Positions 2,998 through 22,276 of a stretch of DNA of 64,000 nucleotides are shown here, one piece after another. The position numbers and the translations under genes were made by a program. The stretch comes from a virus. Taxonomy: Duplodnaviria; Caudoviricetes. The DNA lies in the IMG/VR virus record IMGVR_UViG_2531839010_000002, positions 1-64,000 of that record; one strand, given 5' to 3'. Each line of letters opens with the position of its first letter. The first letter of the stretch is position 1. The notes beneath the pieces were generated by a model. It was not told where the DNA came from. It made no database searches and saw only the letters and a program-made list of their open reading frames with translations.

Positions 2998-3540
2998 TTG
3001 GAGGAAATCATGACGGACGAAGTAAGAGAATATGCCGAAAGGAAGATATGGGAGAGCGGAATACGAATGGTTCCGGGGCATTATCCAGAATTTGAAAACA
3101 AAGAGCAGGTGGATGACTGGCTGTATATCTCAGAATACATGTTCATAAAATCATTCGGTCAGGAAATGCCAGAGATTATCAGTGTTGATATCCAAGGATA
3201 TAAAGACCTGCTGTGGAAACTTAAAAAGAATGAGGATAATGTTCCACTGGAAATCCTCCGGACAAAACACAGAATGGCATACAACAACCTTCGGCAGGAA
3301 CTAAAGGACATGACGGAAGCAATCATTCATGAAGTAGTGCATAGAAACCTGTATATAAAATGGTCAGACGCAGAGCATAGCCTGCAGAAAATCAACCAGG
3401 CTGTAGCGGATTCGGGGATGTGCGAATTAATCAGCAAAGCCTTGTATCAGGAAAAGTGCTATGGCAGCGTCATAGCAGGCATTATGAAATTAAGAAAACT
3501 TGTTTTAGAAGCCGCAGAAGAGGAGGACAAAGGTGCCTAG
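2968..3540 (+). CDS. Hypothetical phage protein
   Basis: 190-aa ORF in operon orientation. Confidence 0.6.
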   Translation: MVTVTMKSGYLEEIMTDEVREYAERKIWESGIRMVPGHYPEFENKEQVDDWLYISEYMFIKSFGQEMPEIISVDIQGYKDLLWKLKKNEDNVPLEILRTKHRMAYNNLRQELKDMTEAIIHEVVHRNLYIKWSDAEHSLQKINQAVADSGMCELISKALYQEKCYGSVIAGIMKLRKLVLEAAEEEDKGA

Positions 3541-7897: not shown

Positions 7898-7971
7898 TGC
7901 GGGGTAGAGCAGTCTGGCAGCTCGCCGGGCCCATAACCCGGAGGTCGCAGGTTCAAATCCTGCCCCCGCTA
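7898..7971 (+). tRNA. tRNA-Met(CAU), initiator-type; CCA not encoded
   Basis: Cloverleaf: acceptor GCGGGG/CCCCGC with 1:72 mismatch, D arm AGCAGTCTGGCAGCT, anticodon stem CCGGG/CCCGG (three G-C pairs), loop CCCATAA, T arm GCAGG-TTCAAAT-CCTGC. Confidence 0.92.
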
Positions 7972-17537: not shown

Positions 17538-17999
17538 ATGGCAGATGTAGCAGGAAGAGTTTATCCGGTGCATAACAATGTGTTTAAGTTTGGCATAAAA
17601 GGCCTCGAAAGCACAGAGGAGGATATGGCTGTACCGTTAGATTTGGAGAATTTCGCTCCGTCCATTGACGGTACCGTAGAGGAATGGTATGCCATGGATG
17701 CGAAGGGCTGGGCAAAAGCAGCCATGACAGGAAAGAAGCTGGGATTTTCCTTCAAAGGAAAGAGGTCAGTAGGTGACCCGACCAATGACTATATTGCCGG
17801 CCTGGCCTGGAAGTTCGGACAGGACGTCATGACGAAGTTTGAGTGGACCATGGTATCCGGCGCAAAGCTGGCCTGTGACGTGGTTGTGAATGTGACCACT
17901 CCGGGCGGCGGTGATACAACCAACATTGACACCCTGGAATTTGAAGTGACGGGATATGGCGCCCCGACTTTTACACCGGCACCCACACCAGGAGCATAA
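17538..17999 (+). CDS. Major tail tube protein
   Basis: 153 aa, synteny, beta-rich, SFKGKRSVGDP motif. Confidence 0.8.
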   Translation: MADVAGRVYPVHNNVFKFGIKGLESTEEDMAVPLDLENFAPSIDGTVEEWYAMDAKGWAKAAMTGKKLGFSFKGKRSVGDPTNDYIAGLAWKFGQDVMTKFEWTMVSGAKLACDVVVNVTTPGGGDTTNIDTLEFEVTGYGAPTFTPAPTPGA

Positions 18000-18012: not shown

Positions 18013-18315
18013 ATGGCAAGGAAAGTAGATATCACAGATAAATTGAGTTTTGAAGGGAATCCATCCCTGGTAATCAAGGGAAAGGCCATAGAAGTGAATG
18101 CGGATGCCCCGACCATGCTTAAGGTCATGGGACTGATGTCAGCGAATGACCCTGGTGCACAGGAAATTCTGGAGGCCTACGACATGATGTTCCCAGAAAA
18201 GTCCAAGAAAGAGATAGAGAGGATGAAACTGGGATTCAATGACTTGGTTATTGTAGTGCAGGAAGCGGTCCAGCTCATTTCCGGCATGGAGGAACCTGCC
18301 GCGGGAGAGCAGTGA
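18013..18315 (+). CDS. Tail assembly chaperone (first ORF)
   Basis: Between major tail and tape measure; ends GCG GGA GAG CAG TGA. Confidence 0.75.
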   Translation: MARKVDITDKLSFEGNPSLVIKGKAIEVNADAPTMLKVMGLMSANDPGAQEILEAYDMMFPEKSKKEIERMKLGFNDLVIVVQEAVQLISGMEEPAAGEQ

Positions 18316-18328
18316 CCCGTACTACGAT

Positions 18329-18649
18329 ATGTTTGAGGACTGGGACCTGATAGTCTCCAGTTTTTTGTCGCAGTACGGGTTAAGAATCAGAACGAAGGAA
18401 TTTGAAACAGTCTCCTGGGACGAATTCAAGGCACTGATTGCCGGCCTGTCCCCGGAGACTGCATTAGGCCGTGTGGTAGCCATCCGGTCCGAAACAGATA
18501 AGGATATCATCAAACATTATACAAAGGACCAGCGCCAGATATATGACGATTGGCGCAACCGGGAAATGAAAGAAATGGATGAGAAAACCTTCGAGAAGGA
18601 AATGGCCGGCCTGGAGAAGATGTTTGCGGCTATGTGCGGAGGTGGTTAA
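18329..18649 (+). CDS. Tail assembly chaperone second ORF (Gp15-like), probably reached by frameshift
   Basis: Frame open upstream of the ATG (SSDPYYD-MFEDWDLIVSSF...); no SD before ATG 18329. Confidence 0.7.
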   Translation: MFEDWDLIVSSFLSQYGLRIRTKEFETVSWDEFKALIAGLSPETALGRVVAIRSETDKDIIKHYTKDQRQIYDDWRNREMKEMDEKTFEKEMAGLEKMFAAMCGGG

Positions 18650-18794
18650 GATTGAGAAAGTAAGATGTGTAAGATGTGGACAGACCCTTCTCCTGGCGGA
18701 ATACGTTAAGGGGGAAATTAAATGTCCCAGATGTAAAACCATAAACAGGTTGGATATAAAAATGACAGAGCCTAGAGCCGCACCAAAGGAGTAG
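18642..18794 (+). CDS. Mu Com-like zinc-finger micro-protein (~47-50 aa)
   Basis: KVRCVRCGQTLLLAEYVKGEIKCPRCKTIN; start either GTG 18642 or ATT 18651 (8 nt after GGAGG). Confidence 0.8.
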   Translation: MVKIEKVRCVRCGQTLLLAEYVKGEIKCPRCKTINRLDIKMTEPRAAPKE

Positions 18795-18836
18795 CGAGCC
18801 AGAGCCTGCTTTTGAATTAAAAGGCAGGTGATATGT

Positions 18837-21800
18837 ATGGCAGCTGACAGCGTAGGCCAGATTGGCCTTGACCTTGTGGTCAACCAGAATCAATTTAAAC
18901 AGCAGATGGCCGGAATACAGGGACTGGCTAAAAAGGCGGGAGCTGCTCTGGCGGCGGCGTTTGCAGTAAAGAAAATCATAGATTTCGGCGCACAGTGTAT
19001 TGAATTGGGTTCCGACCTGGCGGAAGTACAGAACGTGGTAGATGTCACATTCCCGCGGATGTCCAAACAGGTGGATGACTTTGCTAAGAACGCCATAACC
19101 TCCTTCGGCCTGTCCGAGACCATGGCTAAGAAATTCACGGGTACATTCGGTGCGATGGCCAAGGCATTCGGCTTTGGTGAGCAGCAGGCCTATGAGATGG
19201 CCACGGCTTTAACTGGACTGTCTGGTGATGTGGCATCATTCTATAACATCAGCCAAGATGAAGCCTATACAAAGCTGAAATCCGTGTTCACGGGTGAGAC
19301 GGAGACCCTTAAGGACCTGGGCATCGTCATGACCCAGAGCGCCCTGGACAGTTATGCCCTGGCGAACGGCTATGGCAAGGTAACGGCTAAGATGTCTGAG
19401 GCTGAGAAGGTGGCCCTGCGGTATAAGTTCGTGCAGGACCAGCTGTCCCTGGCATCCGGTGACTTCATCCGGACGGCGGATGGCTGGGCAAACCAGGTAC
19501 GCGTCCTGAAGCTGCAGTTTGACAGCCTCAAGGCCACAATCGGTCAGGGGCTCATCAATGTGCTGACCCCGGTCATCCAGGTAATCAACCGCATCATCAG
19601 TAAGCTGATGAGCCTGGCCAATGCCTTCAAGGCATTTACGGAGATGGTGACCGGGAAGAAGGGTGGAGGAGGCACATCCGCAGCCACGGCCGGTATGGAT
19701 GCGATGGCCCAGTCTGCGGATAAGGCCGGGGCGGCCGCCGGAGGAGCCGGCGGGGCTGCTAAGAAGGCCGCTAAAGACATGAAAAGTGTCAGCACAGGCA
19801 TTGATGAGCTTAATATCATTAATCCTGATACCGATTCCGGAGGCGGTGGTTCCGGAGGTGGAGCTGATGGAGGGTATTCTGCGGACGAGTTCGATATGGG
19901 TGAGCTTGATACATCGGCCGTGGATGAGATGGACAGCAAGTATGCAGGACTGATTGAAAAGGCCAGAGAGCTTGCGGGACTGTTCAGGGAAGGATTCTGG
20001 GATGGTTTTGGCGATACGTCCGTCTTTGATAGTATACAGTCATCCATAGACAGCATCAAAGGCAGCCTGAGGGATATATTCACATCGCCGGAGGTGTTGG
20101 CTTCGGCTAATTCATTTGCTGACCAGGTTGCCTATAGCCTGGGACAGGTTGCAGGCTCCATGGCGAGCATCGGGACATCCATAGCGGATAACCTGCTGGG
20201 TGGGATTAGCCTGTTCCTGCAGCAGAATAAGGACCGTGTCATTGAGTATATTGTGTCCATGTTTGATATTGGCTCACGCATCGCGGAGATAAGCGGGAAT
20301 TTTTCCAAAGCACTTGCAACTGTATTTTCATCTCTACGGAGTAACAGCGCCAAGCAGATTACAGCAGATATTATTGGGATATTTTCCGAGGCCTTCATGG
20401 GTGCCACGGAATTGGCAGGGACATTTGCGGCAGATGTACTGGACACCATTACAGCTCCGTTCATCGAAAATGCGGATTACATCAAGACAACCCTGGAGGA
20501 TACATTCAGTGCTGTAGAACCTGTCTTTTCTACGGTTAAAGATTTGGTTACAGAAACTTTTGAAAAGATTGGTACAACATATGATGAGCATGTAGCCCCC
20601 ATGCTGGCAACTTTCAAACAAGGGTTCACGGAAATCGGCACCCTGCTGCTTGATGTCTACAACACATATTTCCTGCCGGTATTACAGAACCTGTCATCTC
20701 GATTCGTTGAATTTAAGGACCAGTACCTGAGCCCGCTGATTGATAAGTTCCTGGAGTTTGGTGGAAAAGTAGCTGATGCGGTCACCAAATTGTGGACCGG
20801 AGCTCTACAGCCATTCATTGAATGGTTTATGTCCAATGTGGCACCGGTCATAGCTTCATGCCTACAAGCCGCCATTGATACATTCTTTGGTTTCTGGGAA
20901 TCCGTTTCGGGTATCATAGAAGGATTGCTCACAGCACTTGGCGGTGTAATTGACTTCGTTGTTGGTGTGTTCACTGGTGACTGGAGTCTTGCGTGGGAAG
21001 GAATCAAGGAAATATTCACCGGTATTTGGGAGACATTGAAAGAGCTCGTTTCTGGTGCAGTAACATTCATTCAAAATGTTGTTAACCTGGCGTGGACTGC
21101 TATATCTGGAGCAACCAGTACCATCTGGAACGGAATCAAGACACTTTTGAATACTCTTTGGAACTGGCTTAAGTCTCTGGCCAATACATTATTCAATGCT
21201 ATCAAGACATCCATCAGCACGGCCTGGGAGAATGTCAAGAGTAAGACATCAGAAATATGGGAATCCATTAAGGAATTCGTATCAAATCTGTGGGATACAA
21301 TCAAGACAGCAGTGGATGAGAAGTTCACGGCCATGAAAGATGCTATTGCCGGGGTCTGGGATACGGTGAGAACAAAGACAAAAGAAACCTGGGACGGTAT
21401 CTGGGCAGATATAAAGGGTATCATTAACATGATTATCAATGGTGTAGAGAGCATGGCCAACAGGGTTATTGATGCGATTAATGCCATGATAGACGCCGTA
21501 AATGAGGTGGCGGATAAGGTACCAGGCATCGGCGCTGATTTTATCCCGAATATACCAAACATCCATCTTCCGCGTCTGGCCCAAGGCGGTTTTGTCCGCG
21601 CCAACACCCCGCAGCTGGCCATGATAGGTGATAACCGACACTATGGTGAGATTGTGGCTCCTGAGGATAAGATGCAGGCCATGGTAGACCGGGCGGTAGC
21701 TTTAGCTTCCCAAACAAGCAGTAATGGCATGAGTGAGCAGTATCTGTCCATCATGGTAGACCTGCTACAGCGTATCATTGACCTGATAGAGCAGATGGAC

Positions 21801-21887
21801 TTGACGGTCAATATCGACATCCGGGAGATAAAGAAGAAATTAGTGGAACTGGATAAGCGTAATGGATACACCATGCGGACTACATAA
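18837..21887 (+). CDS. Tail tape measure protein
   Basis: ~1016 aa Ala-rich helical protein with W/F periodic repeats; C-terminal PRLAQGG; SD AGGTGA at 18826. Confidence 0.93.
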   Translation: MAADSVGQIGLDLVVNQNQFKQQMAGIQGLAKKAGAALAAAFAVKKIIDFGAQCIELGSDLAEVQNVVDVTFPRMSKQVDDFAKNAITSFGLSETMAKKFTGTFGAMAKAFGFGEQQAYEMATALTGLSGDVASFYNISQDEAYTKLKSVFTGETETLKDLGIVMTQSALDSYALANGYGKVTAKMSEAEKVALRYKFVQDQLSLASGDFIRTADGWANQVRVLKLQFDSLKATIGQGLINVLTPVIQVINRIISKLMSLANAFKAFTEMVTGKKGGGGTSAATAGMDAMAQSADKAGAAAGGAGGAAKKAAKDMKSVSTGIDELNIINPDTDSGGGGSGGGADGGYSADEFDMGELDTSAVDEMDSKYAGLIEKARELAGLFREGFWDGFGDTSVFDSIQSSIDSIKGSLRDIFTSPEVLASANSFADQVAYSLGQVAGSMASIGTSIADNLLGGISLFLQQNKDRVIEYIVSMFDIGSRIAEISGNFSKALATVFSSLRSNSAKQITADIIGIFSEAFMGATELAGTFAADVLDTITAPFIENADYIKTTLEDTFSAVEPVFSTVKDLVTETFEKIGTTYDEHVAPMLATFKQGFTEIGTLLLDVYNTYFLPVLQNLSSRFVEFKDQYLSPLIDKFLEFGGKVADAVTKLWTGALQPFIEWFMSNVAPVIASCLQAAIDTFFGFWESVSGIIEGLLTALGGVIDFVVGVFTGDWSLAWEGIKEIFTGIWETLKELVSGAVTFIQNVVNLAWTAISGATSTIWNGIKTLLNTLWNWLKSLANTLFNAIKTSISTAWENVKSKTSEIWESIKEFVSNLWDTIKTAVDEKFTAMKDAIAGVWDTVRTKTKETWDGIWADIKGIINMIINGVESMANRVIDAINAMIDAVNEVADKVPGIGADFIPNIPNIHLPRLAQGGFVRANTPQLAMIGDNRHYGEIVAPEDKMQAMVDRAVALASQTSSNGMSEQYLSIMVDLLQRIIDLIEQMDLTVNIDIREIKKKLVELDKRNGYTMRTT

Positions 21888-21901: not shown

Positions 21902-22276
21902 GTGCCAATCTATATCAATGGACATGAATATCCAAACTATGATCGGGGTCCAGGCCTAACCATTGCTACGAACGTGAACCAGGGCAAGAATGCCCTGGGG
22001 GAATTCGTAGGGCAGCGCGTGGGCCGTGACCAGGATAAGATTGACGGCCTGCAGTGGTCCTATCTGGATGCGGCGACCTGGAGCAGCATCCTTAAAGAGT
22101 TTGAGGAGTTTGTGGTGACGGTCAAGTTTCCGGACATGAAAAACAACTGCTGGAAAACAGAGCGGATGTATCCGGGGAACCGGACGGCCAAGATAGACGA
22201 GATAGGTCCGGATGGGCTGCCCACCATGTATAAAGACTGTAAGGTGAACCTGATAGACTGCGGGGTGATGGAGTAG
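21902..22276 (+). CDS. Distal tail (Dit-like) protein
   Basis: GTG start after GGAGGTG; position after the tape measure gene. Confidence 0.65.
   Translation: MPIYINGHEYPNYDRGPGLTIATNVNQGKNALGEFVGQRVGRDQDKIDGLQWSYLDAATWSSILKEFEEFVVTVKFPDMKNNCWKTERMYPGNRTAKIDEIGPDGLPTMYKDCKVNLIDCGVME

Follow-up and report, generated by a model that had tools for sequence, protein, structure and literature searches.

In the 64,000-nt window analyzed here, which is part of the 73.8-kb provirus record IMGVR_UViG_2531839010_000002 of IMG/VR (Duplodnaviria; Caudoviricetes), the gene for the tail tape-measure protein (TMP) is directly preceded by a 47-residue gene of the Com family of zinc-ribbon proteins and by a compact RNA element of two hairpins, P1 and P2, the second of which is predicted to bury part of the TMP Shine-Dalgarno (SD) sequence. 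On comparative sequence evidence, gene and element form a module that recurs in many gut Firmicutes phages, and the reading favored here, with a probability of roughly 0.6, is that the module is a translational switch of the Com/mom type that has been retargeted to a tail tape-measure gene. That the protein would bind RNA, activate rather than repress translation and bring about the opening of P2 is suggested by analogy with phage Mu, and the switch may also serve a timing role.

The small open reading frame (ORF) lies in frame 0, is closed by a TAG codon at 18792-94 and encodes a protein with a CxxC...CPRC layout. Its product matches the PF10122 profile (Zn_ribbon_Com) over residues 6-38 at 27.4 bits against a cut-off of 22.9 (E 2.4e-6), as well as the PHROG families phrog_6417, labeled 'translational regulator' (3.7e-10), and phrog_13819, labeled 'gpCom' and assigned to control of modification (7.3e-5), and tblastn also matches it to the annotated gpCom of Escherichia phage Chuche. 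By its sequence, the small gene belongs to the Com family. Residues C6, C9, C25, P26, R27 and C28 are invariant across 12 lineages while the tail is unalignable, and an AlphaFold2 (AF2) model has a predicted local distance difference test (pLDDT) score of 74, four short strands and a tail below 50. Sequence and model agree with N-terminal zinc knuckles of the CCCC type, with predicted zinc binding, followed by a variable and disordered tail, as expected of the Com family. A search of PDB sequences with the family profile gave only generic zinc-binding matches at E >0.005, and a Foldseek search of the AF2 model against the PDB returned none at E up to 0.001, with generic zinc ribbons only.

Relatives were gathered from deposited phages by tblastn, from IMG/VR and from GTDB genomes, and the comparative counts given below refer, unless otherwise noted, to 68 distinct relatives that carry both the Com-like gene and the RNA element and were aligned with a covariance model. 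The closest genome match is to Enterocloster aldenensis, with a small protein that is 98% identical. Among deposited phages, Anaerostipes phage AC844P1-3 (64% identity) and Clostridium phage LPCPA58 have this ORF at the corresponding place, which in both records is a gap, empty of annotated genes, just before a long tail gene (L001 3637-3822; L002 2945-3201). IMG/VR contributes 261 relatives, and a scan of GTDB splits into Clostridia and proteobacterial loci, the hosts of the former including Lachnospiraceae, Blautia, Mediterraneibacter, Clostridium, Terrisporobacter, Acutalibacter and others. In every close Clostridia relative from GTDB and IMG/VR, the gene lies directly 5' of an ORF of at least about 700 residues with a TMP-like N-terminus. 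Three downstream ORFs that were tested fall into the TMP PHROG families 1535, 58/1686 and 1533, and because TMPs of at least three PHROG families are involved, the small gene follows the function 'tape measure' and not one TMP lineage. At the proteobacterial loci, com overlaps a gene for a DNA methyltransferase of ~260 residues, which is the known Mu-like layout. One such locus, the com-methyltransferase locus of Methylophaga thiooxydans DMS010 (L102-L114), is present on at least 13 scaffolds, on several of them at the scaffold end, and looks like either a Mu-like transposable prophage in several copies or a repeat in the assembly.

The association between gene and element also holds in the reverse direction. 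A scan of IMG/VR with an RNA-only pattern composed of the P1 3' arm, the P2 5' arm and the SD arm retrieved 56 distinct sequences, of which 54 are true elements, all 54 with a zinc-ribbon gene upstream; the remaining two are chance matches inside a coding region. Streptococcus phage Javan351 is related in its chaperone and in the N-terminus of its TMP, yet has neither the small gene nor either hairpin: directly after its chaperone stop come GGAGGUGA and the TMP start.

P1 is formed by pairing of 18777-83 with 18791-99 (7 bp, with A18793 and A18797 bulged, a C-G closing pair and the loop CAAAGGA), and P2 by pairing of 18804-13 with 18820-29. The 10 bp of P2 give it a predicted stability of -13.5 kcal/mol alone (-9.6 to -17.5 kcal/mol in the family), its 3' arm covers AGGU of the TMP SD AGGUGA, and the linker that separates the two hairpins measures 3-4 nt across the family. 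In a MAFFT alignment of 24 sequences made with no structure imposed, this two-helix model pairs 94.6% of cells, against 35-45% in slid controls, and six pairs show compensatory changes. With all 68 sequences, the share of paired cells is 96.1% (slid controls, 37-49%), with compensatory changes at eight pairs. For P1 the share is 98.7%, with five of seven pairs covarying and one of these passing through six pair types; for P2 it is 94.4%, with three covarying pairs. RNAalifold independently returns P2 and the core of P1, and a covariance model built from the MAFFT alignment finds 35 of 35 TMP-linked loci searched, 17 of which its seed did not contain, and no proteobacterial locus. A search of 18500-19000 against Rfam 15 gave no match at E up to 10.

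Conservation at the nucleotide level extends from ~25 nt 5' of P1 to the TMP start, making an element of ~65 nt, despite a Com stop codon that shifts from relative to relative (before P1 in 26, within the P1 5' arm in two, in the P1 loop in 15 and in the P1 3' arm in 25). An AGAG box 5' of P1 is conserved in at least 95% of the relatives, with G31 invariant, and falls in each of the three phases relative to the Com frame; since the conserved bases keep to no single reading frame, they belong, on this evidence, to an RNA element. The two helices are accordingly regarded, from the aligned sequences, as conserved, covarying RNA structures, and the covariation excludes chance as their origin. The AGAG box can also pair with the 5' arm of P2 in an alternative helix, AGAGC:GCUUU, which is nearly invariant and pairs in 93.8% of cells; it hints, weakly, at a hypothetical two-state switch. 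Another alternative helix further upstream, CAAAG:CUUUG, looked promising on 24 sequences and was abandoned when, on 68, it proved no better than shuffles or slid controls. P2 was also considered as an intrinsic terminator and rejected: no U-run follows it, and the terminator scan lists nothing there. Com stop and TMP ATG are 42 nt apart on the same strand, and a site scan found no promoter-like or terminator-like site between them; all relatives share this gene order.

The original prediction had placed a CxxC...CPxC gene between the tail chaperones and the TMP gene and a 9-bp hairpin at 18805-18828, with the first bases of the TMP SD (18826-31) in its 3' arm. The gene is where it was placed and the hairpin is real, its 3' arm holding the SD bases, although it is longer by one G-U pair. 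Four GAGCC pentamers had also been listed, in two pairs, at 18768, 18775, 18796 and 18802, and all four are present. GAGCC is not enriched in the whole window (121 copies seen, 140 expected), and four copies within 40 nt occurred in none of 300 simulated windows, where the maximum was three, reached in 19 of them. Conservation does not bear them out as a repeated operator: copies 1-4 are kept in 34, 49, 49 and 10% of the relatives, the sole invariant part is the AGAG of the first, the second and third form the foot of P1 (G77-C99, C78-G98, C79-G96) at positions that covary in relatives, and the fourth bridges the linker and the foot of P2. The fourfold repeat is, as far as the relatives indicate, specific to the clade of the window. 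Comparison of homologues thus gave a divided answer, in that every relative examined keeps the hairpin over the SD, with compensatory changes, and the paired GAGCC motifs are not conserved. The proposed Com-type switch at the TMP ribosome-binding site (RBS) came through this comparison, with its hairpin conserved and its gene always upstream, with the amendment that the operator is likely P1, which had been overlooked, and not the pentamers.

The non-canonical ATT at 18651, which had been put forward as the best-spaced start of the small gene, is borne out by the relatives, in which the aligned first codon is ATT in 45, ATA in 14 (together 59/68), ATG in six, and ATC, TTG and TTT in one each. 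In the window it stands behind a strong SD, GGAGGTG, at a spacing of 6 nt, and a strong SD at the same distance is present in 44/68. Substitutions at this position yield other start codons and not other hydrophobic codons, the pattern that marks a codon used for initiation. Seven lineages have no canonical start in frame between the preceding in-frame stop and the first zinc-ligand Cys; in two loci (L181, L194) TAA directly adjoins the ATT, and in the L037 group the TGA of the upstream gene overlaps the start as AATTGA. The gene occurs in two upstream contexts: in 19/68 it is coupled to the chaperone stop, and in 37/68 it is separated from the chaperone by 13-130 nt, an interval that usually contains a terminator-like hairpin and a T-run. 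The AUU start is therefore not merely a reinitiation artefact. Taken together, the alignments strongly confirm a conserved AUU/AUA start. A GTG at 18642 was tried as the start and discarded, being the 3' end of the SD, having no SD of its own and being absent from the L037 group; the GTG found 9 nt 5' of the start in many members is likewise the end of the SD. Conserved initiation at AUU behind a good SD is familiar from infC, the gene for initiation factor 3 (IF3), where it gives weak initiation against which IF3 discriminates. The likeness is confined to the start codon and its SD, there being no homology between the genes, and an autoregulatory link of the Com-like gene to IF3 is speculation.

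The same observations bear on the origin of the small gene. Upstream, its frame stays open as far as 18570 and so overlaps the chaperone end, as it would if the zinc ribbon were a frameshifted extension of the chaperone, or if its motifs had arisen by chance, yet either origin is exceedingly improbable. The intergenic gaps mostly carry the terminator-like hairpin, the seven lineages without a canonical start have an in-frame stop, placed 0-3 nt before the AUU in three of them, and covariation excludes chance; fusion to the chaperone by frameshifting was therefore rejected. In Clostridium-type relatives, the terminator-like hairpin and T-run occur midway through the tail operon, immediately 5' of the Com SD (L081 2953-2976; L002 about 2945-2985), and the Com-TMP unit of these phages lies behind a probably leaky terminator.

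Translation of the small gene could in principle matter more than its product, if it were a leader ORF whose terminating ribosomes unwind P2 mechanically, with the AUU start setting how often this occurs. The stop lies 9 nt before P2 in the window and 4-9 nt before it in 27/68, and coupling to the upstream stop is compatible with such a role. In 28/68, the stop is 22-36 nt before P2, beyond the reach of a terminating ribosome, so that this is not a conserved mechanism, and the invariant four-Cys, Pro-Arg protein sequence is kept under synonymous change. A leader ORF is thus a rather remote explanation, although mechanical unwinding may add to an effect in trans in the clade of the window.

That P1 is the likely operator, and the best candidate for one, is suggested by its resemblance to the Com site of Mu, a short hairpin with a six-residue loop that adjoins a translation-inhibition hairpin containing the mom start (Nowacka et al. 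2019, PMC6483171). Com footprints on the first C and the terminal GA of this loop; the native 19-mer is closed by a C-G pair and has the loop CUGCGA, and a designed binder has the loop CAGAGA (PMC6483171). In the relatives studied here, the C-G closing pair of P1 is invariant, and the loop has six nt in 50/68, conforms to C-NNN-GA in 47/68, ends in GA in 64/68 and reads CAGAGA in two. A C[CNNNGA]G hairpin is found within 90 nt before the methyltransferase start at 11 of 33 proteobacterial com loci, compared with 1.1% of random segments. Methylophaga-type loci (L098, L102, L115) have two such hairpins (AGGC...GCCU and GCAC...GUGC), 23 nt apart, before the methyltransferase start, a pairing that recalls the bipartite motif reported for Com from SELEX experiments.

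The cost of opening the RBS, taken as the energy required to make positions -15..+2 single-stranded, is 11.7 kcal/mol for the TMP start at 18837, a value equal to the median for TMPs of the family (range 4.0-16.7). Nine further ORF starts of the module were tested, and seven of them cost 1.1-8.0 kcal/mol, the exceptions being the ORFs at 22276 (9.8) and 18329 (12.1); for the TMP of the Com-less Javan351, the cost is 5.1 kcal/mol. The TMP RBS is thus unusually costly to open. The ORF at 18329, which has no SD, probably does not initiate by itself. Under the proposed switch, the late tail mRNA would fold into P2 and bury the 5' half of the TMP SD, so that TMP initiation would by default be off or very low. 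The 47-residue zinc-ribbon protein, made from the adjacent upstream gene in amounts that would be low because of its AUU start, would then bind P1 through the C-G closing pair and the C-NNN-GA loop, probably together with the AGAG box, and would shift the RNA away from P2, freeing the RBS.

Masking of the SD would also be expected if P2 acted in cis only, damping TMP translation for the sake of stoichiometry while P1 and the AGAG box served folding or a host factor and the zinc ribbon acted elsewhere, in tail assembly or nucleic-acid binding. SD-masking hairpins commonly set expression ratios, the RBS opening energy is high, and the NCBI name for the protein family is 'DNA-binding transcriptional regulator'. 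Against this stand the joint occurrence of gene and element in 54/54 cases, across TMP families and the two upstream contexts, the fit of the P1 loop to the Com operator consensus and the absence of the hairpins, too, from Com-less relatives, which leave this explanation unlikely. Also improbable is that the protein is a repressor or autoregulator, which on binding P1 would stabilize P1 and P2 or block the 30S subunit and so cap TMP at a few copies per tail. The evidence that pairs protein with RNA applies equally to such a repressor, and sequence alone does not tell in which direction regulation would go; a tail takes far fewer copies of TMP than of the major tail protein, whose gene lies upstream, and the weak AUU start fits a repressor more obviously than it fits a catalytic-like activator, a point that is not decisive. 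P2, however, is stable alone across the family, which leaves a repressor little to add, and the only characterized family member is an activator with the same layout of a hairpin beside an inhibitory hairpin (PMC6483171).

Several points weigh against the activating switch. Every functional step in it is argued from analogy, and there is no clear mechanism that ties occupancy of P1 to opening of P2; the AGAGC:GCUUU helix, which might have provided the link, has a single covarying pair (CG in 37, UA in 12, mismatched in 17). P1 departs from the Mu operator in its longer stem, its two bulged A residues and, in the window, its 7-nt loop, and some lineages have no loop GA, for example the L037 group with the loop CGUUGUA. 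The P2 helix holds only four of the seven SD bases (AGGU) and leaves the start codon outside, and there is hardly any variation at six positions in the SD and the foot of P2, so that three pairs carry the covariation in P2. Relatives of the Javan351 type do without the module, which is consequently not essential for making a tail. Alignments made with a covariance model are biased towards the structure of the model, and kinship among the sequences inflates shuffle tests; the MAFFT alignment, in which no structure was fitted, and the slid controls agree with the model-fitted counts and so give the same picture despite this bias.

The closest known system is com-mom of Mu and D108, in which, as here, a four-Cys zinc-ribbon gene lies immediately 5' of its target in the same operon and a C-G-closed C-NNN-GA hairpin stands directly 5' of a hairpin that sequesters start signals (PMC6483171). 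The module described here differs in that its target is a tail structural gene and not a DNA-modification gene, its hosts are Clostridia and not Proteobacteria, its start is AUU/AUA and not AUG, its genes do not overlap, the P1 stem is longer and has two bulged A residues, the inhibitory hairpin holds half of the SD and not the start codon, and there is an additional invariant AGAG box. Because the target is a tape measure and not a DNA-modification gene, the module is filed as a variant and not as a com-mom operon. Com homologs also precede the non-specific adenine methyltransferases of FluMu (hin1523) and Pnm1 (nma1821), with candidate sites at the 5' end (PMC3299994). These likewise show a Com gene retargeted to a non-homologous downstream gene, in a layout shared by the 30-odd proteobacterial loci found here, but the targets are host-harming DNA-modification enzymes, the genes overlap and the starts are ATG. 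Unannotated PF10122 genes of ~60 codons have been noted before Pseudomonas llpA bacteriocins, tailocin cargo, lysis and levansucrase genes, with a role 'to be explored' (PMC6240691). They resemble the gene described here as small, unannotated PF10122 genes before varied cargo, and differ in that the cargo is accessory and not a core virion gene and in that neither an RNA element nor an odd start is described there (PMC6240691). What appears to be new, judged from sequence, is a Com-type module before a core tail gene; Com-mom, Com before methyltransferases and com-like genes before Pseudomonas cargo were known already. A search of the literature found no publication on a tape-measure target, an RNA element or an AUU start for Com-type genes.

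The module stands within a siphovirus-type tail module at 17.5-25 kb on the + strand, with distal tail genes downstream of the TMP gene, and the features of the region are collected in Table 1.

Table 1. Features of the Com-TMP region, in window coordinates.
Feature	Position	Strand	Evidence
Major tail protein	17538-17999	+	phrog_820
First chaperone ORF	18013-18315	+	
Second chaperone ORF, Gp15-like C-terminal half; TAA stop (18647-49) ends 1 nt before Com start	18329..18649	+	PF06854 (Phage_Gp15) 2.4e-9; phrog_8355
Com-gene Shine-Dalgarno GGAGGUG, 6 nt before AUU	18638..18644	+	sequence
Com-like zinc-ribbon gene, 47 aa, AUU start, TAG stop within P1 3' arm	18651..18794	+	PF10122, phrog_6417
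AGAG box, core of first GAGCC	18767..18770	+	conservation in 68 relatives
Hairpin P1, putative Com operator	18777..18799	+	pairing, covariation, RNAalifold
Hairpin P2, putative translation-inhibition structure, 10 bp	18804..18829	+	folding, pairing, covariation
TMP Shine-Dalgarno AGGUGA, 5 nt before ATG	18826..18831	+	sequence; AGGUG >=95% conserved in family
TMP gene, 1016 aa, ATG at 18837; presumed regulated target	18837..21887	+	phrog_1535 2.4e-155

Further observations concern the flanking genes. The frame of the second chaperone ORF is open from 18257, and homology to Javan351 (PYYD[ML]FED...) extends 5' of its ATG at 18329 to just past the TGA of the first chaperone (18313-15), where the junction CAGTGA(C/G)CC(G/A)TACTA is common to the window phage and Javan351. 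These sequence features suggest that the G-T chaperone fusion may arise through a +1 (or -2) shift or bypass of the stop, rather than through the usual -1 slip. The TMP of the window aligns to positions 134-1112 of the phrog_1535 profile, so that many members have ~130 extra N-terminal residues, real or annotated, and some of these extra N-termini may be over-extended gene calls that run through the Com region. TMP starts in the family are often non-ATG, with TTG in many members and GTG in L101; in L038 (about 3206-3219), ATA stands at the TMP position where relatives have ATG, and the Com gene of the same locus also starts with ATA, while in L120 the codon aligned with the TMP start is CTT. 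The window has a single tRNA, at 7898-7971. It resembles an initiator tRNA-Met (CAU): its anticodon stem contains three G-C pairs, U1 faces U72 (U1:U72), and C takes the place of U at position 33 (loop CCCAUAA). This initiator-like tRNA gene and an AUU-initiated Com-like gene share one phage.

In the usual view, the balance among the late structural genes of phages is set by promoter strength, RBS strength and the G/GT frameshift; TMP, which sets the length of the tail, is needed in few copies. A bolder extension of the switch, doubtful at present, is a two-state RNA timer in which the AGAG box and the SD arm would compete for GCUUU of P2 and Com on P1 would lock the open state; with Com starting at an IF3-discriminated AUU/AUA codon, and in some phages coupled to the chaperone stop, TMP would be licensed only once the chaperone is made or initiation fidelity in the infected cell is relaxed, and Com-type switches might then form an overlooked layer of control for late genes (TMP, capsid, lysin) in Firmicutes phages. 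To our knowledge, no structure of a Mu Com complex is available, and the manner in which Com reads RNA is still an open question; the dozens of natural Com/operator pairs assembled here offer material on how a minimal zinc finger does so. The ~65-nt element, with its two covarying helices and no Rfam match, is ready for description as a family. The gene itself is systematically missed by annotation because it is short and starts with AUU/AUA, which provides a concrete fix for annotation pipelines. If the favored reading is true, a dedicated trans-acting translational activator of TMP would represent a new control point in phage tail assembly.

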